The notes under the pieces: model-generated | What the model saw: only the letters and a program-made list of their open reading frames with translations | Databases searched by the model: none | Told to the model about the DNA's origin: nothing | Translations under genes and position numbers: made by a program | Origin: a virus | Taxonomy: Duplodnaviria > Heunggongvirae > Uroviricota > Caudoviricetes | Length of the DNA stretch: 48,383 nucleotides | Strand: one strand, 5' to 3' | Virus record (IMG/VR): IMGVR_UViG_2671180501_000010 | Shown: one piece after another, positions 3,626-37,819 of the stretch | Position numbering within the stretch: position 1 is the first letter of the stretch | Layout of the letters: the number at the start of each line of letters is the position of its first letter

Positions 3626-3634
3626 ATTCACCCC

Positions 3635-3663: not shown

Positions 3664-3689
3664 GTCATAACACTGTGTTACCTGGCTAA

Positions 3690-4249: not shown

Positions 4250-4676
4250 NNNNNNNNNNNNNNNNNNNNNNNNNNNNNNNNNNNNNNNNNNNNNNNNNNN
4301 NNNNNNNNNNNNNNNNNNNNNNNNNNNNNNNNNNNNNNNNNNNNNNNNNNNNNNNNNNNNNNNNNNNNNNNNNNNNNNNNNNNNNNNNNNNNNNNNNNNN
4401 NNNNNNNNNNNNNNNNNNNNNNNNNNNNNNNNNNNNNNNNNNNNNNNNNNNNNNNNNNNNNNNNNNNNNNNNNNNNNNNNNNNNNNNNNNNNNNNNNNNN
4501 NNNNNNNNNNNNNNNNNNNNNNNNNNNNNNNNNNNNNNNNNNNNNNNNNNNNNNNNNNNNNNNNNNNNNNNNNNNNNNNNNNNNNNNNNNNNNNNNNNNN
4601 NNNNNNNNNNNNNNNNNNNNNNNNNNNNNNNNNNNNNNNNNNNNNNNNNNNNNNNNNNNNNNNNNNNNNNNNNNNN
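4250..4676. other. Run of 427 N (masked or unsequenced bases)
   Basis: Literal n characters; length fits the expected lambda-like J C-terminus, J-lom spacer and lom N-terminus, suggesting masking of real sequence rather than an arbitrary gap. Confidence 0.95.
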
Positions 4677-7600: not shown

Positions 7601-7817
7601 NNNNNNNNNNNNNNNNNNNNNNNNNNNNNNNNNNNNNNNNNNNNNNNNNNNNNNNNNNNNNNNNNNNNNNNNNNNNNNNNNNNNNNNNNNNNNNNCCATC
7701 CACCGGACCTTCAACCGGCCCTTCACTGATGGCATCGATCACACTCAGCAGCTGCGTGGACTTCAGGTTGTCCTTCGCTTCGCGCGGGGTATGCCCCTTA
7801 CTGCTGCCTTTACCCAT
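4677..7817 (-). CDS. J: Host specificity / central tail fibre protein J (tail tip); C-terminal ~95 codons and an internal segment are hidden in N runs
   Basis: Starts [22 protein letters not shown] at 7817; long stretches match recalled lambda gpJ; visible 3' end (…[13 protein letters not shown]) runs into Ns at 4676; internal Ns 7448-7695. Confidence 0.85.
7448..7695. other. Run of 248 N inside J
   Basis: Literal n characters; corresponds to about residues 41-122 of lambda-like J by length. Confidence 0.95.
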
Positions 7818-20400: not shown

Positions 20401-21787
20401 TGATTTCCATCAGCATTACACTCTGATTTTTTAATTCATCGATCACTTCCTCTGGACGGGAATCCTGATCGATAAATTTCAACGCCTGCAACACCCGAAC
20501 CGCATCAATCTGACGTATATCACCGCCCTGACGCAATGACTGAACAGCCAGCGCGGAGGATGAGTCAAACACCTGGGCAGATACATCCAGTTCAGTGCGC
20601 ACATCCACATTGCCACCGCAACTCTCTCCGATCCATTCCGCCATTATCTGGAGAATATTATCGAGGGCATCTTCGAGGGAGTTCGCCATTGTATAAAGCG
20701 GCGAGTTTTCCTGCATTCGCTCTTCATTAGTCTGATCAACAGATTTGGTGGATGTATTTTCAGCACGCAGAAGTTTAGCGCCGGCATGACGCATCTGATT
20801 TTCCAGCTTCTCAAGTGATGTTTCGCCAGATTCTATCGCTGCGCCACTATGTTCAACATATTCGAGGCCATTTTTTGTTCTGTCCTCAAAAATCGTAGCG
20901 GTGGATGCACCAACCGTCAGTTCTTCATTCCTGTCCAGCCCGTAGGCCACCAGCAATGGAACGCGGGCAACATGAAGAATATTGTCCTGCTCGCTCTGGC
21001 TTTGCCAGTGCTTGATATTCAGCAAGCCAAGATTAAGCAATGGCGGTGTACCACGCATAAATCCTGTTTTCTTCGTGTACAGTGTTACCAGAGGAATATC
21101 ATCACGGCTGGTATTCCATGACTCATGAAGCGTCCAGACAGATTCGCCATTAGTGCCTTCGCTACGTCGATAAATTTCAACTCGACGGGGCATAATATGG
21201 CGGATCTGCTCCACCTTCTTCTGCCCGAAATCATCACCATCAATAATGATGACCTCTTTTATACGCAAATCAGTGAGAACAACTTTCCCTTTTTCAACTT
21301 TCGATTTCCATCCAATAACCTGGCGTGGATTCAGCATCGTAACGTACGGACGACCACCGGTCGCGTTTTCATCGGCTTTTGTCCGAATCTCTTTCATATC
21401 CGTTCGTGGATAGTCCACCAGCGCATGTGCCACACCATACTGAAATGCGAGGCTGAAAAATTGCTGCGCCCACACATCCAGTCGGCTCCCCTCCATGTCG
21501 ATATTTTCTGCATATTCCCTGATTTTTGCCGGCGTTTCCTCACTCAATACTGTCGGCTCTGCAAATATGCGCCCAATATTTTGCTTGATGCTTTCTTCAT
21601 ACACAGGAAGTAGCGTAGCCACAGACAGGCGTTTTTTATAAGCGTCTTCATCTTCGTTAGGCCATTTTGGGAGATAATTTTCCCCCTGCCTGCGCATTTC
21701 AAGCGTACCGCCCATCAGTGCGTCGTTAATATCCCACGCCTCCAGCATATCGTTATAGTCGAGGTTGGGTGTTGATATATCAGCCAT
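20381..21787 (-). CDS. Portal protein
   Basis: 468-aa ORF directly downstream of the large terminase gene; acidic C-terminus. Confidence 0.6.
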   Translation of the reverse strand: MADISTPNLDYNDMLEAWDINDALMGGTLEMRRQGENYLPKWPNEDEDAYKKRLSVATLLPVYEESIKQNIGRIFAEPTVLSEETPAKIREYAENIDMEGSRLDVWAQQFFSLAFQYGVAHALVDYPRTDMKEIRTKADENATGGRPYVTMLNPRQVIGWKSKVEKGKVVLTDLRIKEVIIIDGDDFGQKKVEQIRHIMPRRVEIYRRSEGTNGESVWTLHESWNTSRDDIPLVTLYTKKTGFMRGTPPLLNLGLLNIKHWQSQSEQDNILHVARVPLLVAYGLDRNEELTVGASTATIFEDRTKNGLEYVEHSGAAIESGETSLEKLENQMRHAGAKLLRAENTSTKSVDQTNEERMQENSPLYTMANSLEDALDNILQIMAEWIGESCGGNVDVRTELDVSAQVFDSSSALAVQSLRQGGDIRQIDAVRVLQALKFIDQDSRPEEVIDELKNQSVMLMEINDANRE

Positions 21788-21789
21788 AA

Positions 21790-23100
21790 TTAAATCCGAA
21801 GTGATGTGACTCTTCCGGTCGGTTTGACAATAGGGAATTGCTTAACGATGAAATAACCTCCGGCATCATTCGGGTGATCATTGCCAGATTTTTTATCAGG
21901 CTCCCCCTTCTCATCCCAGACCTGTTGCTCCAGAGATTCGGCATATAACGGGCAACGCTTCACATTAACTTTATAGCGACGCTCACCATTGGCATTGCAG
22001 AACATTGCATTCATTGAGTTAACGCGATCTTTTACTGGCGGGTTCGAGCTGTTCACCACAACGTTAAAACCAGCCTGCTTAAGCTGGGCTATATCCGTCG
22101 TACTTGCGTTACTTGATTTTCTGGAATCCCCGGAAGCATCTGGATAAATATAAATTTCCCTCACTTTCCGGTAATCATTCCCATCATACAGCCAGAAGCG
22201 TTCTTTAATGATGCGGATCATATCCGGCGTATCGTAGGCATTGATGATTTCAGTTACCGCACATGGAAGCCCCAAACGCAGCACATGGACGATTCCCGCC
22301 ATCTTTCCAACGTTAAAATCCATCCCAATATAAATCGGCTCCCCTGGCTGCTCCACTTCTTCGCAATTATTCAGTTTCCGGTCAAACTGATGGTAAACAG
22401 TACCACTTGTCAGGTTAGTAAACTGTCCTCGAAGATAGGCTTTAATCAGCTCTGGAGGGTATGATTCAAGAAGCGAAGGAATGTAATCTGCTGGCAGGTT
22501 CTTTTCATTATCGAAAGTAGATGCCTGCACCAGACCATACAGTGAGGCCAGCTCTGTTTTTTCACGCACGGCTTTAACAAACTGCTCGTAGACAAATTTG
22601 AATCCTTCCGGCGTGGTTGTAACGTCAATACCGTTGCGAAGTCCATCAATCTTATAACGCATACGTGCAATTATCTTGCGCCACGCCGTTCTGGCTTTTT
22701 CCTTCGGCAAAATGTCCAGTTCATCCACCAACGCATTACCAATTTTGAAACCGACGATCGTTTGTGGCTTCTCCATCGATCTGCAGATAGTGGTTCCCCG
22801 ATACTGGCGTCCGTAATAAAAGTGAACCTCTTTATTTCCCTCATTAATTTTTACGTTCAATCCCCAGTCAGCAGCAACTTCTTCCACTGTAGGGTAAAAA
22901 ATATCGCGAATTTGGGGATACGTTGGCGCAAAATATCCCTGATTTATACCTGGATGCTCCCAAATCCCCTTGCATATGCCGCCACACCCAACCCATGTTT
23001 TGCCCGAGCCAAAACCAGCAATATAGGCTTTAAATTTATGGGGCATTGAAAGAAATCGCGCCTGAGGCACATTAAGCGTCGGAGAGATCATCTTCATCAC
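21790..23100 (-). CDS. Terminase large subunit
   Basis: 436-aa ORF with Walker A-like YIAGFGSGKT near the N-terminus and acidic residues consistent with a nuclease domain; follows the small subunit gene. Confidence 0.65.
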   Translation of the reverse strand: MMKMISPTLNVPQARFLSMPHKFKAYIAGFGSGKTWVGCGGICKGIWEHPGINQGYFAPTYPQIRDIFYPTVEEVAADWGLNVKINEGNKEVHFYYGRQYRGTTICRSMEKPQTIVGFKIGNALVDELDILPKEKARTAWRKIIARMRYKIDGLRNGIDVTTTPEGFKFVYEQFVKAVREKTELASLYGLVQASTFDNEKNLPADYIPSLLESYPPELIKAYLRGQFTNLTSGTVYHQFDRKLNNCEEVEQPGEPIYIGMDFNVGKMAGIVHVLRLGLPCAVTEIINAYDTPDMIRIIKERFWLYDGNDYRKVREIYIYPDASGDSRKSSNASTTDIAQLKQAGFNVVVNSSNPPVKDRVNSMNAMFCNANGERRYKVNVKRCPLYAESLEQQVWDEKGEPDKKSGNDHPNDAGGYFIVKQFPIVKPTGRVTSLRI

Positions 23101-24166
23101 TCCTTACTCTGGCATCAACCACATTAATATTGATCGCCACAGGCTGGGGATGTTCATTATCTTCCACCGTTTCGATCTCTTTGCGCAGCTTCTGGTTTTC
23201 CATTCTGCGCCGTTCAATTTCCAGTTCCCGTAGCCGCTTATCTGCACATAAAGCCCCGCCAGCAGAAAACAAACGCAACAATTCACGCCGGGCGGCAGCC
23301 TTATCCTCCAGCAGGATCTCAACGCCGAATTTTCCGAATTTTGCCCCTGCATATAATTGCCGCGCATCCCCATCAAGCAGAGTGGTATCAGCCATATAAA
23401 GCTGTCCCGTTCCCTCACCGCAGCACTTCGGGCAGTCCGGATTGGGTATGGCGTTATCAACAAAGCCGAGGCCTCCATATTCCGGTTCGGGTTTGCCATC
23501 TCTGGAAGCCTGCGCCGCTGCCTTGTCGAATTCTGCTATATCGCGCCACTGGTAGAGATGATTCTCGCCCCAGCAATAACGGCAGTTAACACGGCGAAAT
23601 TGTGCAAGCTGATTGGGGTCGGCCAGGACAATAGCCATCAACTGACTCACTAGTAAATCCAGGTCTGCGGTATAGCGTTTCTGGTACTGATTGCGGAAGT
23701 AGCTGATAGCGCGAAAAACCCTGGCATTTCTAAGCATACGACTGGCGTTGCTGTTAGCTGTCGCACCTTGCCCCTCATAACCGGCTAGTCGGTACGCCTC
23801 TGTCGGCTTTTTACCCTGAGCAACAAGCATCGCAAACTTAGCCTGCTGGTCAGAAATGCCGAATTCATCGGGACAGAACGAAAATTCCTCCGCGTCGCCC
23901 TCATTCAGGCCCGCATCGAATACTGGCTTTTTTTCCTGAGATTTTTCGTTCCGCTTTTGTGCAGTCTGCGCAGATTTTTTCTGCGCACTTTTTTGCGCAG
24001 TTTTGCACATTTCTGTCTGCGCATTTTTCGGAGTTTTTTTGATGTAACGACGGGCTGTTGCGTAATTCAGTCCCCTTGCTTCACACCATGCCACCGGAGA
24101 TATACCGGAGCGGGTGTATTCAGCAATATACTCCTGCTGCAACGCCCCCCAGTCCGGTCTGCTCAT
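23072..24166 (-). CDS. Terminase small subunit (HTH N-terminus plus Terminase_2-like segment)
   Basis: Segment QQAKFAMLVAQGKKPTEAYRLAGYEGQGATANSNASRMLRNARV resembles small-terminase family motifs; immediately upstream of TerL. Confidence 0.5.
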   Translation of the reverse strand: MSRPDWGALQQEYIAEYTRSGISPVAWCEARGLNYATARRYIKKTPKNAQTEMCKTAQKSAQKKSAQTAQKRNEKSQEKKPVFDAGLNEGDAEEFSFCPDEFGISDQQAKFAMLVAQGKKPTEAYRLAGYEGQGATANSNASRMLRNARVFRAISYFRNQYQKRYTADLDLLVSQLMAIVLADPNQLAQFRRVNCRYCWGENHLYQWRDIAEFDKAAAQASRDGKPEPEYGGLGFVDNAIPNPDCPKCCGEGTGQLYMADTTLLDGDARQLYAGAKFGKFGVEILLEDKAAARRELLRLFSAGGALCADKRLRELEIERRRMENQKLRKEIETVEDNEHPQPVAININVVDARVRSDEDDLSDA

Positions 24167-24169
24167 CAG

Positions 24170-24421
24170 TTAGTCCTGATTTTTATCCACCCTGAGTAGT
24201 TCGCGCAGAGCAAAGGCATCCCCTTTTCTGGCAAGCTTAAACAATGCCGCTCGTAACTCGGCTTCACCTTTCGCTCTGCCCTTACGGATGGCCGCATAAA
24301 AATCTGTCATTGCTTCCCGATTTTCTTTCAGTCGGTTCAGATCAACATCCAGAACGTCAGCGATTTGTTGTGCAGTCATCCGGCACGCTGCCAGAGACTC
24401 GACTTTCGAATACGGAATCAT
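24170..24421 (-). CDS. Small helix-turn-helix protein (83 aa), function unknown
   Basis: ORF with TAQQIADVLDVDLNRLKENR HTH-like segment; overlaps the 3' end of the upstream ORF, so coding status is uncertain. Confidence 0.3.
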   Translation of the reverse strand: MIPYSKVESLAACRMTAQQIADVLDVDLNRLKENREAMTDFYAAIRKGRAKGEAELRAALFKLARKGDAFALRELLRVDKNQD

Positions 24422-25307
24422 TTGTCACCCCCATTGATATGCAGGGTGTCTTCTTCCTGTATTTTTCGTGAAGGATTTTTACTGCAGCGTTGTTCCAGGT
24501 GACCTGATGGTGAATGCGTTTATGACTGGCACCCATAAGTGAGATTTTTACGCACGACGGCGCATACATGACGGAGTAAAAACTTTTAACGTAGGTTCCG
24601 GAATCCAGATACAGCTCGGTCATTCCGCCGCTGTTTTTCTGCGTCTGTTTCTGCCCTAACTGGACAGCACCGATCGTCATAAACAATTCACCACAGCGAC
24701 CGAGATTCGTGTACGTATTCACATCCTCGTTAATGCGCCCCATGAATGAGAACGGTCGATCAACCGAACAGATAAAGCTGTTCATTGCCTTGCGTTTCAC
24801 CCACGAAGCATGGCCGCCATTGTCACCAAGAAAATCCCCGCCCTGCGACATAGCGATGGAAAGAGCAGGTATTGATTCGTAGTACGCAAGCATTTCAGAA
24901 AGGATCTCATCCAGTTTCCTTATCGGGAAATAGGCCTGGTCATAGTTGCGATCCACCCGAAACTGGAACTCGTGATAATCATCATCGAGCTGAATGAAGT
25001 ATTTACACCCGACCAGTTTTGCCTGGTCGAAACAGGCATTACGGGCGTAAAAAATTGAGCGGCGGTCACTAAAATTATCGGCTTCGTCAAAACGACTAGC
25101 AATATCGGCTTTGGAAAATACCAGCACCTGTTCACCAAATTCAGCCATGTACTGATGCCGTGTCTTATCTTCATCATCAACAACGATAAAAATTTTCCCG
25201 GTATAGCCAGCACGACGCAACGTCCGGTAAGTCAGAACTTTGTCCGGTCGCCCGTGAGTCAGAATAAAGGCGCAAAAATCATCACGCATATTCCTCCTCC
25301 CCGCCAT
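24357..25307 (-). CDS. Hypothetical protein with GT-A-fold glycosyltransferase-like motifs
   Basis: 316-aa ORF; N-terminal FILTHGRPDKV…IFIVVDDEDK and later FIQLDDDYHEF (DxD-like) resemble family-2 glycosyltransferase signatures; pattern recognition only. Confidence 0.35.
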   Translation of the reverse strand: MAGRRNMRDDFCAFILTHGRPDKVLTYRTLRRAGYTGKIFIVVDDEDKTRHQYMAEFGEQVLVFSKADIASRFDEADNFSDRRSIFYARNACFDQAKLVGCKYFIQLDDDYHEFQFRVDRNYDQAYFPIRKLDEILSEMLAYYESIPALSIAMSQGGDFLGDNGGHASWVKRKAMNSFICSVDRPFSFMGRINEDVNTYTNLGRCGELFMTIGAVQLGQKQTQKNSGGMTELYLDSGTYVKSFYSVMYAPSCVKISLMGASHKRIHHQVTWNNAAVKILHEKYRKKTPCISMGVTNDSVFESRVSGSVPDDCTTNR

Positions 25308-26070
25308 GCATGATCTCCACCATGCGCTGCGTCATTCGGACAAATCCATTTTCAATAGCCTGCTGATAATCAATGATCACCAGCGCCGACTCCTCGAAAA
25401 GGCACTGAATTTCAGCGGGGGCATGAGCGTAATAGTCCGCAATTCTGCTGAAATTAAACACCGTGTGACGTTCTGCTGCACACAGGAGGAATTTCTCAAT
25501 ATCAGGATCAAGGGACGCCGAACGTATCCGGCTGATCAGCTCCTGAGTTTTCGTATCGTCGTACAGTTCACTGATATCCGGTTTACCGCCTGACGGCTCA
25601 TAAACAGGCGTATCAATTTTCGTCGTATACGGCTCCTCCTCATTTCCTGTACCGGGCAAAACATCCGTCAACAGTTCATCAATTTCTGCCGGGATGAAGC
25701 CTGTCAGGGAGACATCAAAATCAGCATTGATTAGGTCCGACAGCTCCATCCGCAACAGATCTTCATCCCAGCCAGCATTCATCGGCAGGCGATTATCTGC
25801 CAGGCGGTACGCCTTTTTCTGCTCATCCGTCAGGCCAGACAGAACAATGACCGGAACAGAATCCATTTTGAGCATTTCAGCCGCCATAACACGACCGTGA
25901 CCCGCAATAATTTCGCCCTTTTCGTCAATCAGCACCGGATTAGTCCAGCCGAATTGCTTAATACTTTCTACCAGTTGTGCCACCTGCTCAGTACTGTGCG
26001 TCCTGGCGTTGTGCGCATACGGTGACAATTCTTGTAATGGGCGATAGACTATCTTTAATTTCTCGCTCAT
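25282..26070 (-). CDS. ParB-like nuclease domain protein
   Basis: N-terminal ParB/Srx-like signature (LSPYAHNARTHS…GWTNPVLIDEKGEIIAGHGRVMAAEML…VPVIVL); C-terminal 160 aa unassigned. Confidence 0.7.
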   Translation of the reverse strand: MSEKLKIVYRPLQELSPYAHNARTHSTEQVAQLVESIKQFGWTNPVLIDEKGEIIAGHGRVMAAEMLKMDSVPVIVLSGLTDEQKKAYRLADNRLPMNAGWDEDLLRMELSDLINADFDVSLTGFIPAEIDELLTDVLPGTGNEEEPYTTKIDTPVYEPSGGKPDISELYDDTKTQELISRIRSASLDPDIEKFLLCAAERHTVFNFSRIADYYAHAPAEIQCLFEESALVIIDYQQAIENGFVRMTQRMVEIMHGGEEEYA

Positions 26071-26207
26071 ACAGCCTTGCTTTATGAATAAAACGCACCC
26101 CAGCAGCCAGTGCTACTGGGGGCGGAGGTGTTGCTGGTAAAGTTAGGTATTGGATCAATGAGTGAGTCAACATAATATTAAACTCACAATTATAAATCAG
26201 CCATATA

Positions 26208-27665
26208 TTAGGAGCGCCAAAAAAAACCTGAAAACAATATAATAACAGGATAAATTTCAAGGCGACCAAGAATCATAGCTATGCACATTAAATATTTTGC
26301 AATGTCATTAAGCACTCCGAATGACGATGCAGTAGCCCCAAAACCTAATCCCATATTATTAATACATGCAGCCACTGTTGCAAATGATGTAAGAAAATCA
26401 TATCCCATACCATTTAACACCAGTATAAAAAACACCGTGAAGAGAGTATAAAGAAAAAAGAAACTCCATACAGACCTCATTACACGATCTGTAACTATCT
26501 TCCCTCCTACATTTACACTCAACAACGCTCTGGGATGAGAAAGCTGATTTATCTCGTGTTTGCTTTGTTTGAAAAGTATAAGAAATCGAAGTGACTTAAT
26601 TCCACCACAGGTTGAACCTATACATCCCCCAAAGAAACTTGACAACAGCAAAAACACTATCGTGTGCGTGGGCCAGTTTGCATAATCCTGCGTAGCTAAA
26701 CCATTATCAGTGAGCATGGAGCTGGCAAGAAAAAACGAATGAATAAAACTTCCATGCAAGTCATACATACCTATATGCCAGACCTGGAAAGAGGTAACAA
26801 TGATCACCCCTAAGGCTATTAACAGAAAGAAACGAAGTTCAATATCTCTGATTAAAGGTTTTATCGTTTTTCTGCTAATAACAATATACCAAAGAGTGAA
26901 GTTGAAAGCCGATAGCAGGGAAAAAGAACCAGCCACCAGCTCAACCAAATAGTTATTAAAATATCCGATACTCTCGCTATGAGTTGAGAAACCACCAAGC
27001 GAAACTGTGGAAATCCCGTGACAAATAGCATCAAACAAAGGCATTCCTGCAAGTCTATAACAGACAATACAAGCAATACCTAATAAAGAATAAGTTATCC
27101 ACAGTGTCCGTGACGTATCGGCCAGGCGGGGAGTGAGTTTGTCATCCTTAAATGGCCCCGGCATTTCTGACTGATAAAGCTTTGCACCACCAATACCCAA
27201 TAATGGCAATACTGCAACCGCCAGAACAATAACTCCTAAACCACCTATAAAATTTAACTGTGACCGATAGTACAAATATGCCCGAGGTAATGAACTAACA
27301 TCATCAATTACAGTTGCTCCTGTTGTTGTTATTCCAGAAACCCCTTCAAACAGAGCATCAATGAACGTTAAATTAAGTTCTGAGTCAATCCATAAAGGGA
27401 ATGCACTAATAACAGAAAACAAAATCCAAAACATTACAATTATAATAAACCCATCACGGGTACGTAATTGAATGCCAGATTTCTTAGTTGTATACCACGC
27501 TCCGCCACCAATGCAAAAAAATATAACGAAAGTTATAAAGAAAACGAACAGGCTTTTTTCTTTATAAAACAATGCTACAACCATTGGTGGCAACATTGAA
27601 AGACTATAGAGCCAAACCAGGAACCCACACATATGAGTAACAACTCTTACATGAGATGTATTCAT
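26208..27665 (-). CDS. trkG: Trk-system potassium uptake protein TrkG
   Basis: 485 aa from ATG 27665 (MNTSHVRVVTHMCGFLVWLYS…), matching recalled K-12 TrkG; polytopic membrane protein; markedly AT-rich gene. Confidence 0.9.
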   Translation of the reverse strand: MNTSHVRVVTHMCGFLVWLYSLSMLPPMVVALFYKEKSLFVFFITFVIFFCIGGGAWYTTKKSGIQLRTRDGFIIIVMFWILFSVISAFPLWIDSELNLTFIDALFEGVSGITTTGATVIDDVSSLPRAYLYYRSQLNFIGGLGVIVLAVAVLPLLGIGGAKLYQSEMPGPFKDDKLTPRLADTSRTLWITYSLLGIACIVCYRLAGMPLFDAICHGISTVSLGGFSTHSESIGYFNNYLVELVAGSFSLLSAFNFTLWYIVISRKTIKPLIRDIELRFFLLIALGVIIVTSFQVWHIGMYDLHGSFIHSFFLASSMLTDNGLATQDYANWPTHTIVFLLLSSFFGGCIGSTCGGIKSLRFLILFKQSKHEINQLSHPRALLSVNVGGKIVTDRVMRSVWSFFFLYTLFTVFFILVLNGMGYDFLTSFATVAACINNMGLGFGATASSFGVLNDIAKYLMCIAMILGRLEIYPVIILFSGFFWRS

Positions 27666-27802
27666 ATCTAAATATTCTTTCAATTATAACCACCTTGCTG
27701 CAATATTATGATTATACTGTATAAAATTTAACTCCTCTTAGATCTTACTTCACTGTTCCTTATGAAACAATCATCAAAATGAATCATATTGTAGTTAAGA
27801 TT

Positions 27803-29227: not shown

Positions 29228-29623
29228 CTAACCTCGCATGTCAAAGCCAGATTTCTGAAAATCTCTGTAGACTTCCGGATTGTTGAAGGCCGGAAATTTG
29301 GCTTTATGAGCTGCGGACTTTATCGCTTCGCAATAGGCTTTATCACCGTTACTGGTAGATATTTTTAACGCCGTGCCATCCTGAGAGAATTCCATATGCA
29401 ACCTGCATTTTTTCCCTTTCCAGTTATGCGGCTCATCAAGTTTGGCATTAATTGCAGCTCTGATTCCCCGCGCTTGCGCCCCCCATTCATCCTGATCATC
29501 CCAGCGTCCTGAACTGCAACTACCTGTAGCAGTAGTTTTGTGGCAATCTGAAGGGTGTAAAGGTGTGCATCCCGCAACAAAACCGACCCAAAAAGTCAAC
29601 ATAACGATTTTCTTTAATCCCAC
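29228..29623 (-). CDS. Lipoprotein with TolA C-terminal (domain III)-like domain, paralogue 1
   Basis: GTG start at 29623 with GAGGAG RBS; signal peptide plus lipobox (FVAGC); C-terminal region (…KGKKCRLHMEFSQDGTALKIS…YCEAIKSAAHKAKFPAFNNPEVYRDFQKSGFD) parallels TolA domain III. Confidence 0.7.
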   Translation of the reverse strand: MGLKKIVMLTFWVGFVAGCTPLHPSDCHKTTATGSCSSGRWDDQDEWGAQARGIRAAINAKLDEPHNWKGKKCRLHMEFSQDGTALKISTSNGDKAYCEAIKSAAHKAKFPAFNNPEVYRDFQKSGFDMRG

Positions 29624-29773
29624 TTCTTGCTCCTCAATCCATTAAAATCTCAGCAATAGTAGTTGTTACGTCCGCCACTGGCTCAGAGCTGACTATCCGC
29701 TAAATTTAGCTCAGTGCCGTAGCTGTGTCAGAACAAACCTAAGCCGAAACCGTTTATTACAAAACAATAAATA

Positions 29774-30202
29774 TCAGGGTTTAAAATCCAGCACCCCATT
29801 TTGAAATACTTTATATACTTCCGGCGAAGGGGGGGCAGGTATATCAGCATTCTTTATCGCATTCATCGCTTCACGACATAAATCGAGGTCTCCACTTTCT
29901 CTTTTAACCTCCAGTAGAAGGCCATTCGGGGCCATATGCATTCTCAGTGTACACTCTTTTCCTGAATACTTACTCGCATCCCCGAACTGTTTTTCGATGG
30001 CGCTCTTGATTTGATGGGCATACAGACGGATATCCTCACTAACATCAGAAGTACGTTCAGATGAACTCACATACTGTGTCTCTATTGCTTTATCGGAGTA
30101 ATATGATGTACGGTCATGATAATTTGTCGATACAGCATCAGTGCACCCGATAATAATCCCACTAATAATCAACGTAAGAATTGATGCGCTACGAAAACCC
30201 AT
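29774..30202 (-). CDS. Lipoprotein with TolA C-terminal (domain III)-like domain, paralogue 2
   Basis: ATG 30202 with GAGGAAAA RBS; lipobox (IIGC); C-terminus YAHQIKSAIEKQFGDASKYSGKECTLRMHMAPNGLLLEVKRESGDLDLCREAMNAIKNADIPAPPSPEVYKVFQNGVLDFKP closely parallels recalled E. coli TolA C-terminus. Confidence 0.75.
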   Translation of the reverse strand: MGFRSASILTLIISGIIIGCTDAVSTNYHDRTSYYSDKAIETQYVSSSERTSDVSEDIRLYAHQIKSAIEKQFGDASKYSGKECTLRMHMAPNGLLLEVKRESGDLDLCREAMNAIKNADIPAPPSPEVYKVFQNGVLDFKP

Positions 30203-30232
30203 TTTTCCTCACATATGTCATATAGTAAAGGA

Positions 30233-31789: not shown

Positions 31790-32076
31790 AAATGACCTTT
31801 CTTTCTCCAGATTTCTTGTGTGCGAAAAACCCCTTCAGCATGCATCAGGCGCAATTCTTCTTTGGTGTAATCGCTGGTTTTTACCCGCCCGTCGATTAGA
31901 TCGTGGCATGAGCTACAGGCTATCGCCGCCTGCATATCATGTGGTTTTGTCGCTGTTCCGCACGTCCCCGCCAGCCTGTAATGCGCCAGCACAGAGGTTT
32001 CGGGATTGTGATTGCAGTAGCCAGGGATTCTGATCTGGCACATCTGGCCTTTAGCCGCTTTACGTAAATTCACCAT
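31786..32076 (-). CDS. YbcO-like protein (DUF1364, putative Zn-binding nuclease)
   Basis: 96-aa ORF MVNLRKAAKGQMCQIRIPGYCNHNPETSVLAHYRLAG…CHDLIDGR, matching recalled DLP12 YbcO including the Cys cluster. Confidence 0.7.
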   Translation of the reverse strand: MVNLRKAAKGQMCQIRIPGYCNHNPETSVLAHYRLAGTCGTATKPHDMQAAIACSSCHDLIDGRVKTSDYTKEELRLMHAEGVFRTQEIWRKKGHL

Positions 32077-32675
32077 TACGCAAACTCCAGTAGTTGTGCG
32101 GCCACATTTTCAACTTCCTCCTGAGAGGAGAATTTACGGAACAGAATCCAGTTCCACAGCACATTCAGTACAGATTTATAAACCTGCTGAAACTCGACTT
32201 CGTCCATATTCGCAAAAGCGATGGATTTTGCCCGACGCCCACGGCTACCGTCCGGATAAATATGCTCGGTGTAAAATCCGGCCTGAATGGTTACCCACTC
32301 GCGGAAAGCCTCAAACGACTTTAGCAACGCCGTATCCCGGGTTCTACGAGTCGCAACGGTGTTAAGGTATTGCTCTGCGGCATCACTCAGGGCTGGCGTG
32401 TGTTCCCGACCAACTGATTCGCACAGGTAATCAACGAAACCAGACAGCAGTTCTCGTTCGCGAGGCGTGATCGCCCCACCGACCGGAGTCCAGTAATCGA
32501 ATCCCAGTTGCAGGAGTTTGAAAAAACGCTTGTGGAATGCGTAGTTACGCACACGCTTAAAGTCTGCGTGTATCCACTCACCTATTTTGATTTGATGCAG
32601 AAAATCGCAACTCTCCGGCGTCGCCGGGAGAAGTAAACCAGAAGAGGTTTGTTTGACCAGTTGTATATGCGCCAT
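32076..32675 (-). CDS. nin-region protein, possibly DUF1367-like
   Basis: 199-aa ORF whose stop overlaps the ybcO-like start; family name is a weak recollection. Confidence 0.45.
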   Translation of the reverse strand: MAHIQLVKQTSSGLLLPATPESCDFLHQIKIGEWIHADFKRVRNYAFHKRFFKLLQLGFDYWTPVGGAITPRERELLSGFVDYLCESVGREHTPALSDAAEQYLNTVATRRTRDTALLKSFEAFREWVTIQAGFYTEHIYPDGSRGRRAKSIAFANMDEVEFQQVYKSVLNVLWNWILFRKFSSQEEVENVAAQLLEFA

Positions 32676-33433
32676 TTCTCAATCTCTCGATGGCGCAGCG
32701 CAGCAGATGCCAGTTGTTCAGGCTGACGAATAAAGTATAAATAAACTGGCTATGGTGTAAAGCCCCACATAGCATGAACAAACACTACATATCAAATAGC
32801 TGGTACAAGGATAGAAATACGACACTTATTATTAAAAACGATTAGATAAATTACATTTTAATGTTATGCAAAAGTTCTTTTTTATCATAACATTTCAATA
32901 AAAGCATTACAGATGCAATCATCCCGTCATCATCAATTATTTAAGGTGGTTAAACATGGAAAATAACAAGTTCGCACATCTCGCTCCTTTTTTATCCGTA
33001 ATCCTTTTCGCTTGTTGTTTTATATGGGCATTATTTTTATAAAGTAGCCACATGATAAGTTGCTGGAATCATATTTCCCACTCAAGTCATTAACATTTGA
33101 TAAGATATATCTAAAAGGACGCCTTTACATTATTTATGCGTATATAATTTATTTATATACACAGTAAAGGTATCCTGGGAAAATATTTATCGTTAAAAAA
33201 TACATCATAAATAATTAAGCTGAAATTTCAGAACACAACTAATACACACAATAAGGTTCAGTAACAGTAATCTATGTGGACTACATCGAGATTTTTTGAT
33301 TAAACTTTAATAACTTATTCCTAACACACAGAATGCATAAACTAAAAGTAAAACAAATAGTTATACGAAAAACAACCATATTTATTCTATCTTCTCCTCT
33401 AATCAACATATCAATTATGTGTTTCATAACAGC

Positions 33434-33466
33434 TTGACATAACCCTCCAAAAGATGCATTTTTAAT
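33434..33466 (+). promoter_or_regulatory. Candidate promoter for the YeaR-like gene (consensus -35, weak -10)
   Basis: Perfect TTGACA at 33434-33439; possible -10-like elements CATTTT / TTTAAT downstream; GGAGGAGG RBS at 33476-33483. Confidence 0.3.
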
Positions 33467-33488
33467 GCATGTTTTGGAGGAGGTGGTT

Positions 33489-33827
33489 ATGACACACAAG
33501 AGAATTCCTAAAGATTGGGTAATCAAACGCTCAACTCCGTTCTTCACAAAAGAGAACGTACCTTCAGCGTTATTAACACATCATAATACAGCAGCAGGTG
33601 TTTTTGGGCAGTTGTGCGTAATGGAAGGCACTGTAACATATTATGGTTTTACTGATGAGAATGCTACTGAACCGGAGATAAAAGTAGTCATTAATGCTGG
33701 CGCTTTTGCAACAAGCCCACCACAATACTGGCACCGTGTTGAACTAAGCGATGATGCTCAGTTTAATATTAACTTTTGGGTCGCTCCAGACTTTTCGGGC
33801 GAAAAAGTCTATAGCACCAAAAAATAG
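33489..33827 (+). CDS. YeaR-like protein (DUF1971; TehB N-terminal-domain-like)
   Basis: ATG 33489 after GGAGGAGG RBS; MTHKRIPKDWVIKRSTPFFTKENVPSALL…GTVTYYGFTDENATEPEIKVVINAGAFATSPPQYWHRVELSDDAQFNINFWVAPD parallels recalled E. coli YeaR. Confidence 0.75.
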   Translation: MTHKRIPKDWVIKRSTPFFTKENVPSALLTHHNTAAGVFGQLCVMEGTVTYYGFTDENATEPEIKVVINAGAFATSPPQYWHRVELSDDAQFNINFWVAPDFSGEKVYSTKK

Positions 33828-33856
33828 ATGATCATATTAAAAATGCTTTAACAGTC

Positions 33857-33895
33857 AGACCCGGCAGGGCTATCCCCGACGGGTCTCATTTTTGT
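33857..33895 (+). terminator. Rho-independent terminator after the YeaR-like gene
   Basis: agacccg…cgggtct imperfect stem with inner GGG/CCC pairing, followed by CATTTTT. Confidence 0.45.
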
Positions 33896-34447
33896 AAATA
33901 TATTGGTTCTACATTGACAGGAGACTTCAACCATAAGAAGTAATCTGAATACTTGAGCAATAAATTTACTTAAGATTAATGAGCGCACCTTGCCGGACAA
34001 AGATAAACCAAGGTAACACCTTTTTTCTAGCCAGTATGTAATCAATCAGAAAGCCGCTCCATAAGAACAACAGCAAGACAATAAATTGCCATTACAGCCG
34101 CAATAGCCAGCGCACATTTGAGAACCAGCACGACAACCCCCTGTATTAGACGCACACCAGTCCTGATAAATATGAGGCTGTCTCGTCAGTGATTCAATAC
34201 AACTATTGGGTATAGTTTCTGTGATTTTATTCTGTAGAAATGGAACACAACAACCAGTCACCACCAGCACTTCCTTAAATGCTCTAAGTCAGAAACAAGC
34301 CAACATTTTAGTCCGCTTTGAGCGATCTGCAGACATTGCTAGCAGCCTTCTGTGTGAATTCTCAGGGAGCAGGTCGGCATAGCATCACGTTGAGGCTCTT
34401 ACCCTACTTGTTCACACCAACCCTAACTCCACAGACTGATTCATAAA

Positions 34448-35449
34448 TTAGTAATCTGCGTGTTTCGCACTTTTCAGAAATGCTTTCATATTTTCATTAG
34501 GTCGCTCAATTTCGAAGTTACTTCCATATAACTCTTGTAATTTTGGCCATAACTTACTTAATAACCCTCTCCTGCGATAAAATGGATGTATCCAAACGGT
34601 AGATAGGTACGGAGAATTTGCATTTGAATTGTTTATTGTGACCAGCCCAACTAAACATTGTCGATAACCACTATTATCCATTGATTGTATTTCTTCGACG
34701 AATGGATACGCGATTACATCAGTCCAACCATGATCGGTTGTATCCCATTGCATTCCGTCATGACATTCCTTCGACTGATAGCGGCGTAAAGCTACACACG
34801 CGAGCTTTTGCCAATCTGGAGAATTAATTGTGATCTCTTCATCGTATGACGCGCCTATTGGAGCGGGTATTGGTCTGATTAATCCAGCATGGCATTCATC
34901 ATAGAACTTCATGTTTCCCTCAGAAACGTTGTGTACGTTGGGTTGCTCCATGTGTGCGCCATTCAAAAATAGCTCTGATAGTAGTGTATCTACACTGTAA
35001 TCTTTATTGATTATTGTCGGCTTAGAGTTTTTCTTATTAAGGCCGCGAGTAACGATTTTTTGATCAATGTTAACAACATGGAATAATCCGTCGGGGAGGC
35101 TAGCGAACCACGATGGGGCATCGGACCAGAATAGCATGCCTTTTGTACTTCTTAAGAGTTTAATTAAGTTAATACAAGCTTCTTCACTAGTCTTGCCGTT
35201 GATGCGAAGTATGTTAGGACTAAAGTAATATTCATCCATATCAGGGAATGCAGCTTCGCAAAACTCCTGTACATAATTTAGCACCTGGATTCTACAGAGA
35301 TCATCATAGCTGGTAATAACTAAGGGGGTATCTTCATTACTATTATGATTATCAATAATGCAATCTATAGCGAGACTTACTGCTTTGCGTATCACTTCAG
35401 TTGAATCTAACGACTCTAAAAATTTTGTCTTTCGTGTGCGAATATCCAT
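34448..35449 (-). CDS. Hypothetical protein (333 aa) with GNAT-acetyltransferase-like C-terminal region; second gene of a two-gene cargo operon
   Basis: ATG 35449 lies 15 nt after the stop of the upstream gene; C-terminal YLSTVWIHPFYRRRGLLSKLW resembles GNAT motif A; N-terminal 230 aa unassigned; about 35% GC. Confidence 0.7.
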   Translation of the reverse strand: MDIRTRKTKFLESLDSTEVIRKAVSLAIDCIIDNHNSNEDTPLVITSYDDLCRIQVLNYVQEFCEAAFPDMDEYYFSPNILRINGKTSEEACINLIKLLRSTKGMLFWSDAPSWFASLPDGLFHVVNIDQKIVTRGLNKKNSKPTIINKDYSVDTLLSELFLNGAHMEQPNVHNVSEGNMKFYDECHAGLIRPIPAPIGASYDEEITINSPDWQKLACVALRRYQSKECHDGMQWDTTDHGWTDVIAYPFVEEIQSMDNSGYRQCLVGLVTINNSNANSPYLSTVWIHPFYRRRGLLSKLWPKLQELYGSNFEIERPNENMKAFLKSAKHADY

Positions 35450-35464
35450 GTATGACCTGCGCTA

Positions 35465-36487
35465 TTAAAATTCATGAATGAACGGTTTGTCATCTGGTTG
35501 CAAAATGGTGGTTTTATTCGTTGCTACATTTAAACTGTTGTAGAGCATAATTGCCAGGTTCGATGCATTTTCAATCAGCGTTTCAAGATCCTGGTCTGTA
35601 ATCACTACGAGGTTCCCTTCTTTATCCTTTCCACCACGATGCACTAAGTGATTTCGATTGAGGGTTGCCAATTCAATAGCTTCTATCGGACAGTCTTTTT
35701 GTACTTTTATATCGAATGTAGCTTCATAGCGGTCGATTACCTTTTTAGTGCTATGCCAGCTTGCACTGATCAAGTGTTCCTTGATTGACCTGATTAGCTC
35801 TCCCCTAATTTTCTCGATGGGTTCACCCTTGAAAGGCAACGCAGCAATATCTTTGCTTACTTTAAATTCAGTCTTACCTTTTTCTATACAATTGGCTATG
35901 TAGACATCATCTTTCTCTATAGAATTAATGAATAGCTCAACATAAAGCGTTTCCAAAGCTGTAATAACATTCGTGTAGAGCAAACTAAGCAAGTGGTTTT
36001 TTTGCTGTTGTTCAGTTTTATCTTTTGCAAGTTTTTTTATTTTATCGATATTATCAATGAATTTTAAATACGGATTACCGGAAGACGTTACAGCGTCGTA
36101 GATATCATCATCGTACCAATCATCTATATTATTTGAGTTTCCAGACCAGTCAAAACATTGTGTTTGTAATTCATCTACTAATTCCTCAATATACTCAGAT
36201 TTAACATATTGACCGAAGATGGATTGTAGTTCTTCGCTCGCATCATACGGCCCGCCATATATGTAAGCATAGCCACCTTCTCTACTTTCATACGGACAAG
36301 CATTTGCCGGATCTTCAAAGTTTTCAAAGAACCAGTTTTTCATTACTTCGAGTTGATCTTTTTTGCTTATGTATTTTAAAGATTTTAGTGGAACTTTCTT
36401 TCCATTAACCTCGAAAACAATTTTCACGATGTAACGCTCCCTTGTATCAATTGCGCAACTATTATACCACAGCGAAATACAGGGCAT
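35465..36487 (-). CDS. Hypothetical protein (340 aa) with C-terminal R-N-x3-H (HEPN-like) motif; first gene of a two-gene cargo operon
   Basis: ATG 36487 preceded by AAGGAGG RBS (track ORF extends to 36556 but lacks an RBS); motif LNRNHLVHRGG at residues 277-287; AT-rich; candidate TTGACA -35 upstream. Confidence 0.7.
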   Translation of the reverse strand: MPCISLWYNSCAIDTRERYIVKIVFEVNGKKVPLKSLKYISKKDQLEVMKNWFFENFEDPANACPYESREGGYAYIYGGPYDASEELQSIFGQYVKSEYIEELVDELQTQCFDWSGNSNNIDDWYDDDIYDAVTSSGNPYLKFIDNIDKIKKLAKDKTEQQQKNHLLSLLYTNVITALETLYVELFINSIEKDDVYIANCIEKGKTEFKVSKDIAALPFKGEPIEKIRGELIRSIKEHLISASWHSTKKVIDRYEATFDIKVQKDCPIEAIELATLNRNHLVHRGGKDKEGNLVVITDQDLETLIENASNLAIMLYNSLNVATNKTTILQPDDKPFIHEF

Positions 36488-36625
36488 AACCTGCCTCCTT
36501 AAACTAACATACCATGAGCCAGCAATGTCCGCTATTGGCACAAAGCGGACAACCACGCTAGCTCTCCCCTGTGCCAGAAAAATGTCAATTTACATATGAA
36601 CTAATGCTCTTTGATCTAGTAACGT

Positions 36626-37042
36626 CTATAAATACCGAAGATTTCCTTGATAAAATGCCAGTACACGTTTCATAACTTCACTCTTCCGGCACTCGCGACA
36701 GATTATGTTCTGACGCCTGTCATAGCGGCGTATTTCTCCGTCTGGTAATGACCAGATAAGGTCAGGATCAACCACAACCGTTTTTTTCACCTTTGCCCTG
36801 GATAGTTTTTTGCGGGCGTTTTTCCAATCCTTACGAGCCTGTTCAGACGGGAATAACCCATAGCCAGAGTTGTATACATCGCCACTGGCAACCAACTCTC
36901 TGGCAAGAATGCTCATCAGATATCTTGTCGCACCTGTCTTGGCCTCCAGTTGCCTTAACGTCTCGCGCCCACTCTGGCGTACCAACTCAACAACCTGCTC
37001 CTTAATTTTTTCACGCTCTTCCTGTGTAAAAACTTTTGCCAT
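36626..37042 (-). CDS. Hypothetical protein (138 aa)
   Basis: ORF 36626-37057; ATG 37042 (MAKVFTQEE…) preceded by GGAGGCG; basic C-terminal half with a CRECRK motif. Confidence 0.6.
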   Translation of the reverse strand: MAKVFTQEEREKIKEQVVELVRQSGRETLRQLEAKTGATRYLMSILARELVASGDVYNSGYGLFPSEQARKDWKNARKKLSRAKVKKTVVVDPDLIWSLPDGEIRRYDRRQNIICRECRKSEVMKRVLAFYQGNLRYL

Positions 37043-37057
37043 AAGCGCCTCCGGCAA

Positions 37058-37819
37058 TCACTTTTCCGACACAATACGACTGGAGGAATCGACAATCTGT
37101 CGGACAATATCCCGGTGCTTGTTCAGCTCCCGCAGCGCGGCGCAGACTCGCTCCCACTTCTGGACATGATTTTTCGCCCGACGCAGTTCGCGGTTTGCCA
37201 TATGCAGCGATGGTAAAACTAGGTCATCCGCTTGCGTTTCAGTAAACGATGGCAGCGACTGCACAATGTCCGCCACAGTTTCTGTTTTAATATCTTCCTG
37301 TGTTGCCGCTTCCTGTACTGGTAACGCAACACCGGCTGGCTGAGGAAAGGCTTTACCATCAGTTTCCGCTACCGATGCAGCTTTCGGCTCTGCTGGTAAA
37401 TTATCGCCCGGCATGCAGTAACGAAATTTACTGTTCTGGTTTACGCGAATCAGGCGTCCTTTGCTGATTGCCATTGCCAGCGTTGAAGCAACTTTGCGGG
37501 ATGTTGTACCGAACAGCGTAGCCAGTTCATCCGCCGTTTGTGGTCCGCGTTGTTCAATCGTCGCGGTTAAATCGCACTCTGAGATTTTCACTACAGTTGC
37601 CGTGGTGGTTTCTTCCGGCAGTTCTGCCTGCATTGGCTGTTCCTGCTGAACGTTGTTATCAGCCACACGCCAGGTGTACGCGCTTTTATCAACGAAACCA
37701 GCTTTTTTCAGTTCCCATAGTTCGTTCAGCACTTCTTCACGACTGATATCAAGTCGCGCAGCAAGTTCTATGGATGTGGCTTTTCCCATTGCTTTCAGTG
37801 CGTCAAAAACAGTCTCCAT
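37058..37819 (-). CDS. ydaW: YdaW-like DNA-binding protein (full length)
   Basis: ATG 37819 ([13 protein letters not shown]…) with GGGAGGAAA RBS; winged-helix-like N-terminus; position after the DnaC-like gene as in Rac, where K-12 ydaW is a fragment. Confidence 0.6.

Follow-up and report, generated by a model that had tools for sequence, protein, structure and literature searches.

The subject of this work is an AT-rich stretch at positions 32676–36625 of a 48,383-nt virus record (IMGVR_UViG_2671180501_000010; the whole record is hereafter called the window). The stretch probably belongs to an accessory-gene recombination hotspot of a Rac-like lambdoid prophage, with the replication module on one side and the nin/Q-like genes on the other, and holds a YeaR-like gene as cargo together with a two-gene cassette, A and B, that is most likely an anti-phage abortive-infection module. 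A is a candidate HEPN ribonuclease, and B joins an orphan domain to a GNAT fold. The defence role that we assign to A and B as the most likely one rests on domain content together with strong guilt by association.

Gene A encodes a predicted HEPN ribonuclease

The product of gene A is a 320-aa protein to which we assign an N-terminal HEPN_RES_NTD1 domain and a RiboL-PSP-type HEPN domain. Upstream starts that would give a 363- or 340-aa protein were rejected as over-extended; the 120 homologues are mostly 310–320 aa long and align from the GTG at 36427. The Shine–Dalgarno (SD) region ahead of this GTG is conserved, reading TTTTTCAAGGAG in relatives and ACAAGGGAG in the window. The match to HEPN_RES_NTD1 (PF18870) covers residues 69–135 of the 363-aa open reading frame (ORF) and scores 22.2 bits, below the cut-off of 27.4, while the homologue P0116 reaches 28.7 bits and many others carry a precomputed match. 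In addition, the motif WFxxNFEDP...YGGPYDA in the N-terminal domain is nearly invariant. The model for RiboL-PSP-HEPN (PF18735) gives no match to A of the window at E ≤ 1; among the homologues, P0101, P0060 and P0095 score 36.1, 28.5 and 24.8 bits against a cut-off of 28.4, about 30 carry precomputed matches, and the UniRef cluster of A is labelled 'RiboL-PSP-HEPN domain-containing protein'.

Specifically, the Rx4H catalytic motif RNHLVH (R258-N-H-L-V-H263) is invariant at R258 and H263 in 62 A sequences of 26–87% identity, as are residues P45, G58-G59-P60, F71, W94, E159, W224-H225 and R264. AlphaFold2 (AF2) models are confident for both A and B. The model of A has the all-alpha fold of HEPN proteins, with a confidently folded N-terminal half, and its nearest structural neighbours (score in brackets) are YutE (1ylm, 9.3), TT1696 (1ufb, 9.2), an AMPylated HEPN toxin (8xdj, 9.1), sacsin HEPN (3o10, 9.1), the SO_3166 toxin (5yep, 8.8) and a further HEPN toxin (7ae2, 8.5). 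Weaker structural matches include AbiA, Csm6 and LsoA.

The L-PSP-associated HEPN family has been described as catalytically active and as distant kin of the AbiD/AbiF abortive-infection HEPNs (Anantharaman et al. 2013, PMC3710099). A resembles this family (PF18735) in that its homologues score on the family model, but the family is defined by endoRNase L-PSP fusions and ParB operons, whereas A has neither and carries HEPN_RES_NTD1 instead. Judged from its sequence, A is a candidate HEPN ribonuclease of the RiboL-PSP type that would belong to the solo-HEPN abortive-infection proteins of prophages.

Gene B joins an orphan domain to a GNAT fold

The product of gene B is a 333-aa protein with an orphan N-terminal alpha/beta domain (residues ~1–190) and a GNAT fold (~190–333), the alpha/beta topology of the latter being present in the model of the C-terminal half. 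The match to Pfam Acetyltransf_1 reaches 19.9 bits, below the cut-off of 20.7, and homologues P0164 and P0166 score 27.0 and 26.2 bits. In the motif A region, WIHPFYRRRGLL, with HPFYRRRGLL, residues R292, H288 and W286 are invariant; G295 is frequent yet not universal, and L takes the place of the final G/A of the R/Q-x-x-G-x-G/A pattern that forms the acyl-CoA pyrophosphate loop. A motif-B-like element (P317-N318..M321..F324) is also conserved.

The N-terminal domain has its own invariant residues (D29-C30, N34, D110, R135 and N138). Neither Pfam nor the PDB sequences contain a match to it, and Pfam searches with 15 such domains gave no consistent family. A profile search with B, exhaustive over 1.84 billion representatives, returned 468 relatives, among which full-length B is rare and the N-terminal domain occurs solely in B and B fragments. 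The C-terminal half recurs as a stand-alone family of ~150–170 aa, with E-values down to 1e-71. The fusion of an orphan domain with a GNAT fold in B represents a chemistry absent from the established anti-phage effectors in the open-access literature that we searched.

A and B form a conserved cassette

The original prediction described these genes as a two-gene operon of unknown function. The operon stands, and domains can now be assigned to both products. A and B are co-directional and 15 nt apart, and the 2.24-kb cassette encodes only these two proteins. The pair recurs with the near-identical spacer TAATAG[C/A]GCAGGT[C/G]ATA[C/T]ATG in E. coli, Serratia grimesii, Aeromonas and a metagenomic contig, with identities of 87% for A and 78% for B in Aeromonas, and 78% and 74% in the contig. 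Cluster members of one or both proteins are found in Klebsiella, Morganella, Proteus, Pectobacterium and Salmonella. In searches of 5426 complete E. coli genomes with sub-segments of the region, from which all genome counts below derive, the operon is present in 209 genomes, 208 of them at ≥99% identity and the type strain ATCC 11775 among them. The two candidate defence genes are common in clinical and veterinary E. coli, extend to Klebsiella, Proteus, Morganella, Serratia and Aeromonas, and are missed by current defence catalogues.

Two candidate promoters were read upstream of A (Table 1). Ahead of A homologues with 56–77% identity, either TGCTATGTT or TGCTATATT is retained, and TGGTATGTT is kept in homologues of A that occur without B. 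A leader of ~110 nt (36415–36520, minus strand) is likewise conserved in loci at 56–100% identity (L047–L056, L112); its layout is CTTTGTGCCA..AGCGGACA..TGCTATGTTA..AGGTCA..TTTTTCAAGGAG, and it partially overlaps the proximal inverted-repeat arm described below. Its conservation may reflect promoter, operator and SD signals. RNA folding of the A leader and of the 3′ region of B was no more stable than that of shuffled sequences (z +0.8 and +2.2), and we therefore claim neither a riboswitch-like element nor a terminator there.

Copies of B at 86% identity that appear to stand alone are deletion derivatives, in which the promoter region of A and its first ~15 and last ~20 codons are kept. One deletion junction is common to loci L016, L098 and L116–L118, and L099 has a different one. 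Both variants retain a mini-ORF ending at the stop codon of A, 15 nt ahead of B, with the last 12–20 codons kept, which suggests that B depends on translation of the upstream frame. Furthermore, the deletions suggest selection against A combined with selection to keep B expressed, and hence that A is the costly partner. That loss of A is tolerated and B stays intact across genera speaks against B as a mere antitoxin of A.

Relatives of both genes lie in defence-gene neighbourhoods. In Aeromonas, A+B neighbour ThsA (SIR2_2/STALD), ThsB, a TIR_2 protein and a ParS/MbcA-type antitoxin. A without B is found next to an ApeA_NTD1 protein (in a P2-like prophage, directly ahead of ogr-like, portal and terminase genes), PDC-M68B/DUF2326 and Mrr_cat; other such sites are beside integrases and in another lambdoid nin region by DUF1367. 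B without A neighbours HerA (E 1.1e-176), and one B homologue lies beside Mrr_cat, HEPN_Toprim_N and a cluster of TerB, a BrxC_BrxD-family ATPase and a helicase.

In the Serratia grimesii locus (L015, 7480–10610), A+B are followed by ORFs of 660 and 383 aa that look McrBC-like by eye; on the other side, a CP4-57-like island contributes CbeA/YeeU-type antitoxin-like genes ahead of the pair.

The cassette occupies a repeat-bounded defence hotspot

The interval from DUF977 to DUF1367 (or to hok/hokD in Qin-like phages) contains different genes in each relative. PF9285 carries a 471-aa protein and a '4-fold beta flower' protein; ATCC 8739 carries hok, an ATP-dependent nuclease and a cytosine methyltransferase (Dcm); AR_0372 and phage 666R9 carry hok together with a KilA-N protein and one hypothetical protein; in Tritos and in mEp460 the cargo is a single ~445-aa protein; and Evi carries an acetyltransferase and a regulator.

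The A+B cassette is bracketed exactly by the longest inverted repeat of the region, whose two 46-nt arms are 72% complementary and 2174 nt apart. Compared from their outer ends, the arms are identical at 26 of 33 positions, and each contains an internal GTCCGC-N12-GC(G/A)GAC dyad. The same arms flank the other cargos of Tritos, Evi and PF9285. Outside lambdoid prophages, homology to the window ends exactly at the outer arm end in Serratia (L015), Rahnella (L016), L097, Enterobacter (L098, L116 and L118) and L099, and the flanks of these five non-lambdoid contexts are all different, L099 lying downstream of a 780-aa zinc-finger, primase-like ORF. No target-site duplication was found around the arms in seven arm-to-arm loci (~5 distinct contexts). 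The cassette of the window contains no transposase or recombinase, no cognate enzyme was found, and insertion-sequence (IS) fragments in the L098 and L116 cassettes look secondary. The Aeromonas locus, L122 and the loci with A alone have no recognisable arms in a substitution-only search allowing up to nine mismatches. The arms open with GTCCGC and do not resemble integron attC cores (RYYYAAC...GTTRRRY).

A survey of IMG/VR with one 23-nt proximal-arm pattern matched at least 120 contigs, and the counts that follow are among the matches listed. At least 85 of the 120 contigs have a distal-arm core within 12 kb, with arm-to-arm distances of 0.58–6.8 kb and at least 35 cargo clusters in between. 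Conservation is high for ~28 nt from the outer end of the arm and then collapses towards the cargo. Of the 120 loci, 88 contain a DUF977 homologue and 64 a homologue of s2, a small ORF just beyond the distal arm; 63 of the 85 two-arm contigs have DUF977 on one side and s2 on the other.

Searched with PADLOC, 44 representative cargo proteins matched 92 models at E ≤ 1e-5. Among the matches are PD-T7-1 (3.7e-157), a CBASS cyclase (4.7e-144) with a 2TM effector, and ThsB (8.9e-128), as well as Pycsar PycC, DarG, Tmn, PD-T7-5, PDC-S06, -S07, -S15, -S33 and -S39. Because varied arm-bounded cargos match this many defence models, the slot is a genuine defence hotspot. The guess that DNA at this position would be a defence or fitness module fits these results: sister phages carry known defence systems in the slot, and an NsrR-type operator ahead of the YeaR-like gene suggests regulation by nitrosative stress.

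Other arm-bounded cargos read as AbiH-like (cluster C11), TIR-TPR (C13) and GIY-YIG (C8). Locus L166 (9671–11551, cluster C26) reads as a DarT-like protein with a macrodomain protein, and the DarG model matched one scanned cargo protein. Clusters C2, C5, C7, C16, C20, C30 and C32 may be further unknown systems.

The slot resembles the P2/P4 hotspots (Rousset et al. 2022, PMC9122126), where unrelated defence systems swap at a fixed backbone position. Uncharacterised HEPN-containing cargos are mentioned in those hotspots (PMC9122126), and the P2-like prophage carrying an A homologue, noted above, is a further point of contact. In contrast to P2/P4, the present slot lies in lambdoid (Rac/Qin/Tritos-like) phages, and its short inverted repeats recur together with the cargo at non-phage sites. 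A repeat-delimited lambdoid defence slot was not found in the open-access texts searched. Two short conserved repeats would provide a search handle for defence discovery in lambdoid prophages, as the P2/P4 hotspots did; known systems account for many of the at least 35 cargo types recovered with the single 23-nt pattern.

The arms might mark the termini of a mobile cassette that is non-autonomous, serve as short homology linkers in Red/RecET-type exchange, or be paired operators. A bolder scenario, which we regard as rather doubtful, would make them the ends of an undescribed class of plug-in, transposase-less cassettes that carry defence genes among the lambdoid prophage slot, P4-like satellites and chromosomal islands, through a recombinase acting in trans or Red/RecET-type exchange, with A+B as a two-enzyme HEPN and GNAT defence that jointly shuts down translation on infection. 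If the repeats were recombination substrates, this would account for the traffic of defence genes among phages, satellites and chromosomes.

Proposed function of the cassette and alternatives

We propose that A would be the effector of an abortive-infection module. The HEPN_RES_NTD1 domain would keep the HEPN ribonuclease silent until a phage product releases A, and released A would cut tRNA or other RNA and thereby stop translation, as for Tha and HepS. B, presumed to be co-transcribed and probably translationally coupled to A, looks like an acyl-CoA-dependent acyltransferase and may act with A as a second effector, modulator or sensor; it would also work alone in other genomes. B and the repeat-bounded cassette architecture could be the new parts of such a system.

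Solo-HEPN abortive-infection proteins of prophages are established in Tha (PMC11087260) and HepS (PMC13043305). HepS is an anticodon nuclease of the Gifsy-1 prophage that was picked partly for its site, where lambdoid prophages often encode accessory genes (PMC13043305). A is likewise a single canonical Rx4-6H HEPN protein encoded by a lambdoid accessory gene right after the replication genes, and HepS is expressed in the lysogen. A differs from HepS in having about twice the implied size, the motif at R258-H263 rather than R100-H105, a HEPN_RES_NTD1 domain and a co-transcribed GNAT partner. In Tha-1 (301 aa), which tail proteins activate, the HEPN domain is C-terminal and has R265-H270 (PMC11087260). 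The layout of A is nearly equal and its logic would be the same, but Tha-1 and Tha-2 come from S. aureus prophages and another HEPN family, with no detectable sequence relation to A, and a tblastn search of A against 50,697 phage records returned no staphylococcal phage. Tha owes its self-immunity to a small antisense gene instead of a GNAT protein, and the N-terminal half of Tha is predicted to be disordered, whereas that of A is predicted to be folded, with confidence.

Several results weigh against an abortive-infection module made of A and B. Profile searches of A, B and the N-terminal domain of B against PDB sequences gave only noise, as did A against the 5027 models of PADLOC-DB 2.0.0 (E ≥ 0.011); B matched none of these models, and neither protein has a match in NCBIfam. 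Some slot cargos look metabolic or regulatory, for example cluster C1 (two ~210-aa proteins, one matching just a PDC candidate model), so that the hotspot association is suggestive only. Catalysis by B is not assured because the glycine of motif A varies. The two proteins also part company: A occurs without B in 25 loci (31–77% identity), including a chromosomal copy at 77% between housekeeping genes by sucCD (L123), and B without A in 20 loci with solo homologues at 35–62%. Since A has been deleted at least twice independently with B and the promoter kept, adjacency may reflect stacking rather than cooperation. Finally, the GNAT half has stand-alone ~160-aa relatives positioned where phage replication modules end, a location that would also fit a benefit to the phage, through host takeover or anti-defence.

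These last points lead to the alternatives. It is quite possible, if less probable than not, that A and B are unrelated single-gene modules side by side, a solo HEPN abortive-infection protein and an independent acyltransferase to which the operon merely lends a promoter. The solo loci, the distant A homologues with no conserved partner, the two A deletions that leave B intact and expressed-looking, and the stand-alone GNAT family would all follow. Against this, the pair and its 15-nt spacer are kept from E. coli to Serratia, Aeromonas and a metagenomic contig, down to 78% and 74% identity, and both deletion variants preserve the mini-ORF ahead of B. An addiction module, in which B would be an antitoxin that neutralises the HEPN toxin A by acylation, by analogy with type VII HEPN-MNT toxin–antitoxin systems, appears unlikely. 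HEPN toxins (8xdj, 5yep and 7ae2) are structurally nearest to A, the bicistron is tight, and A is lost with B retained yet, at ≥78% identity, never found without B. Nevertheless, the L123 copy stands alone, all A homologues at 31–74% lack a B-like or other conserved neighbour, B persists and spreads after loss of A (the 86% lineage, Rahnella, Enterobacter), which is unexpected for a dedicated antitoxin, and the toxin-first order and the sizes of 320 and 333 aa are atypical. Neither A, B nor the adjacent ORFs contain a recognisable domain of an MNT nucleotidyltransferase or of an RHH/DUF1778 antitoxin. GNAT toxins of type II toxin–antitoxin systems include TacT, AtaT and ItaT. B shares their fold and the nearest structures to A are HEPN-MNT toxins, both families targeting translation, but B, with its additional N-terminal domain, is double the size of GNAT toxins and lacks an RHH/DUF1778 antitoxin neighbour, and, in contrast to HEPN-MNT systems, there is no MNT and A and B are not an obligate pair.

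AcrVA5, which acetylates Cas12a, illustrates how an acetyltransferase could serve a phage. By analogy, B, and perhaps the whole cassette, would act in the lytic cycle to inactivate host defence or remodel host proteins, a role we consider very unlikely. It would suit the position of the cassette within the early-right transcription unit of the prophage and two stand-alone GNAT relatives in phage contigs that overlap the 3′ ends of primase/helicase-like genes, one a 437-aa DUF3987 gene and the other an unannotated 802-aa gene. On the other hand, chromosomal defence islands away from any phage genes commonly carry B homologues, the isolated phage genomes of INPHARED lack A and B save for three faecal-metagenome records of A, and a putative promoter of its own suits expression in the lysogen. 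It is highly improbable that the low-GC stretch is decaying DNA of horizontal origin that no longer has a function: the prophage is degraded elsewhere, with IS elements and pseudogenes in the copy of E. coli NCTC9112, but none of the three ORFs is broken, 208 genomes carry the cassette at ≥99% identity, motifs in both protein families are under strong purifying conservation at 30–90% identity, and the AF2 models are confident. The abortive-infection module is the reading that we retain. In PHROG, A and B match phrog_17908 and phrog_16994, each of 'unknown function', and a search of the open-access literature found no citation of WP_000354966 or WP_014639476 and no HEPN and GNAT defence pair.

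The AT-rich stretch is a mosaic

The low GC content that first singled out this stretch is borne out by the base composition, 0.376 against 0.447 and 0.481 in the left and right flanks and 0.466 in the window as a whole. It contains the lowest-GC region of its length in the window, just 0.2% of 3950-nt windows being lower, with a trough of 0.29 at 32750–33500. The original prediction took it to be a single ~4-kb inserted island, and this does not hold: the stretch is a mosaic of independently assorting parts. The DUF1971 module, which comprises the YeaR-like gene with its signals, is at least 80% covered in 450 genomes, the A+B operon is present in 209, and the entire block is found together in only 13. 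The block as a whole is therefore not a fixture of most Rac-like prophages, and its three genes match no core phage function, as had been proposed. Their domain assignments are instead to PF09313, HEPN and GNAT.

Two segments are backbone rather than cargo. The spacer at the DUF1367 side is so assigned because it is present, at ~76% identity, in 366 further genomes without the DUF1971 gene, and it aligns with ATCC 8739, AR_0372 and phage 666R9. The junction on the distal side of the slot is kept irrespective of the neighbouring cargo, the SF-166 copy lying in a Qin-like prophage. The DUF1971 module, in turn, is retained in PF9285 and AR_0372 beside other cargo. A hok remnant beside the DUF1971 gene was considered and rejected; in alignments to hok-bearing relatives, the hok segment is simply missing from the window.

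Table 1. Features of the slot and its flanks, in window coordinates
Feature	Positions	Strand	Remarks
DUF1367 gene	32076–32675	−	Left flank, nin-region backbone; Pfam PF07105, E 6.4e-98; annotated DUF1367 in NCTC9112
AT-rich spacer	32676–33045	.	Adjoins DUF1367; backbone, not cargo
s1	32937–33023	+	Unannotated 28-aa hydrophobic ORF MENNKFAHLAPFLSVILFACCFIWALFL; SD TTAAGGTG; frame and SD intact in ATCC 8739
DUF1971 module	33046–34034	.	Promoter/operator, gene and terminator
NsrR-type 11-1-11 operator	33451–33473	+	AAGATGCATTTTTAATGCATGTT; 15 nt upstream of DUF1971 start codon
DUF1971/YeaR-like gene	33489–33827	+	112 aa; Pfam PF09313; RefSeq WP_000149055.1; strong SD GGAGGAGG
Intrinsic-terminator-like hairpin and U-tract	33857–33893	+	Fold −17.7 kcal/mol, z −2.96, then CAUUUUUG
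Conserved backbone junction	34035–34325	.	Distal side of slot; ~90% identity in Tritos, Evi, mEp460, SF-166, PF9285
s2	34042–34155	−	Unannotated small hydrophobic ORF; 37 aa from GTG 34155, 29 aa from GTG 34131, MLVLKCALAIAAVMAIYCLAVVLMERLSD
Distal arm	34298–34343	.	Inverted repeat I1, 46 nt; outer end GTCCGCTTTGAGCGA..., outer-to-inner GTCCGCTTTGAGCGATCTGCAGACATTGCTAGC
Gene B	34448–35449	−	333 aa; orphan domain and GNAT fold
Gene A	35465–36427	−	320 aa; GTG start at 36427; HEPN_RES_NTD1 and RiboL-PSP-type HEPN
Candidate cassette promoters	36461–36514	−	Extended −10 TGGTATGTT (36514–36506); TGGTATAAT (36469–36461); read from sequence
Proximal arm	36518–36563	.	Minus strand GTCCGCTTTGTGCCAATAGCGGACATTGCTGGC; holds hairpin GTCCGC-N12-GCGGAC
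DUF977 (LygF-like) gene	36626–37057	−	Right flank, final backbone gene ahead of slot; Pfam PF06163, E 3.3e-31

The DUF1971 module is a predicted NsrR-controlled moron

The DUF1971 protein matches PF09313 over the full length of the model (1–80 of 80; E 2.6e-26; 91.9 bits against a cut-off of 23.1). NCBIfam TehB covers it only partially (48.8 versus 303), so the prophage protein is not TehB itself. The gene is oriented opposite to the phage early genes, and the promoter- and terminator-like signals attributed to it earlier can be recognised at the sequence level as an NsrR-type operator and a hairpin with a U-tract. Specifically, the operator has two mismatches to a 23-nt search pattern, AAGATGCATTTNAAATGCATCTT, obtained from the ytfE NsrR site AAGATGCATTTAAAATGCATCTT by leaving the central base (A in ytfE) free; it is the sole match in the window, and 100 shuffles gave none. 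Its left half is the top-scoring NsrR half-site AAGATGCATTT, and the site also makes a 17-nt palindrome (I5). NsrR recognises an 11-1-11 inverted repeat, AAGATGCATTT-N-AAATGCATCTT (Table 4 consensus, PMC5320621), and yeaR is an NsrR target, the yeaR-yoaG operon of E. coli being regulated by NsrR and NarL (PMC5320621).

With a promoter and terminator of its own and a near-consensus NsrR operator, the DUF1971 gene is probably a self-contained moron responsive to nitric oxide or nitrosative stress, like chromosomal yeaR. It shares with yeaR-yoaG the DUF1971/YeaR family and an upstream NsrR 11-1-11 site, but the prophage paralogue lacks yoaG and its NsrR control is predicted from the site. A putatively NsrR-controlled YeaR paralogue would be a neat case of a prophage moron wired into a stress regulon of its host. 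The region matching the operator reads ...GGTGCATTTATAATGCATG in AR_0372 and phage 666R9.

Two small hydrophobic ORFs are conserved

The intervals 32676–33430 and 33828–34447 had been reported to hold no convincing ORF, a view that is contradicted by two short conserved hydrophobic ORFs, s1 and s2. ORF s1 is preserved in ATCC 8739 although its flanks are only ~76% identical, and several of the changes are synonymous. It has no entry in the protein collection, and tblastn finds it unannotated in four phage records. For s2, substitutions at codon positions 1/2/3 number 0/2/4 and 0/2/6 in comparisons with SF-166 and Tritos, and the hydrophobic/transmembrane core (…VVVLVLKCALAIAAVMAIYCLAVVLMERLSD) is invariant in both. 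ORF s2 is annotated in phage HannyBb only; its place in Qin-like phages is between the slot and hokD. It occupies the +1 frame overlapping a 74-aa Cys-rich ORF (34046–34270, minus strand), which was rejected: that frame is open in relatives, yet its changes concentrate on codon position 1 (6/2/3 and 6/0/3). These patterns of conservation suggest that s1 and s2 are coding. Both resemble small membrane peptides, and s1 is possibly a small membrane protein or a type-I-toxin-like peptide.

Prophage surroundings of the slot

The 5.2 kb around the slot are 100% identical to the chromosomes of, among others, E. coli NCTC9112, JP538 and NCTC10444. In NCTC9112 the surroundings are a Rac-like lambdoid prophage with intR, xisR, ralR, recT, recE, racC, kilR, sieB and a repressor/cro-like pair, followed by ydaT, ydaU, ydaV, DUF1627, DUF977, the slot, DUF1367, DUF1364 and DUF1133, and then by TolA-like genes, essD, rrrD and a lysis gene. 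In phage vB_EcoS-666R9 the DUF1133 protein carries the annotation antiterminator Q. This gene order places the slot between the ydaU/ydaV replication module and the nin/Q-like genes, in agreement with the original prediction. The region is indeed missing from K-12 Rac, where ydaW is directly joined to the rzpR pseudogene and trkG follows; the absence is a large deletion (ydaW to rzpR) and not an empty insertion site.

An Rfam scan of 32000–37200 by E-value gave just two sub-threshold matches, CRISPR-DR57 and STnc150 (both E > 0.2), with no Sok or hok RNA. A generic promoter/terminator scan returned counts no higher than in shuffled sequence (12 versus 14.4 and 3 versus 2.9), and it missed the real-looking elements.

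Elsewhere in the window, at ~20250–27700 (256–7667 of locus L001), the Qin-type genes rem, hokD, relE, relB, ydfV and a truncated flxA adjoin the Rac lysis/trkG region, which suggests a Rac–Qin rearrangement in this strain background. The same stretch also carries several IS elements (IS1414, ISNCY and IS1). At ~29230–30203 (9230–10203 of L001), two TolA C-terminal-domain-like genes lie between the Q-like gene and the lysis cassette; one of them is frameshifted in NCTC9112, and the stretch is further low-GC accessory DNA (GC ~0.40–0.42).

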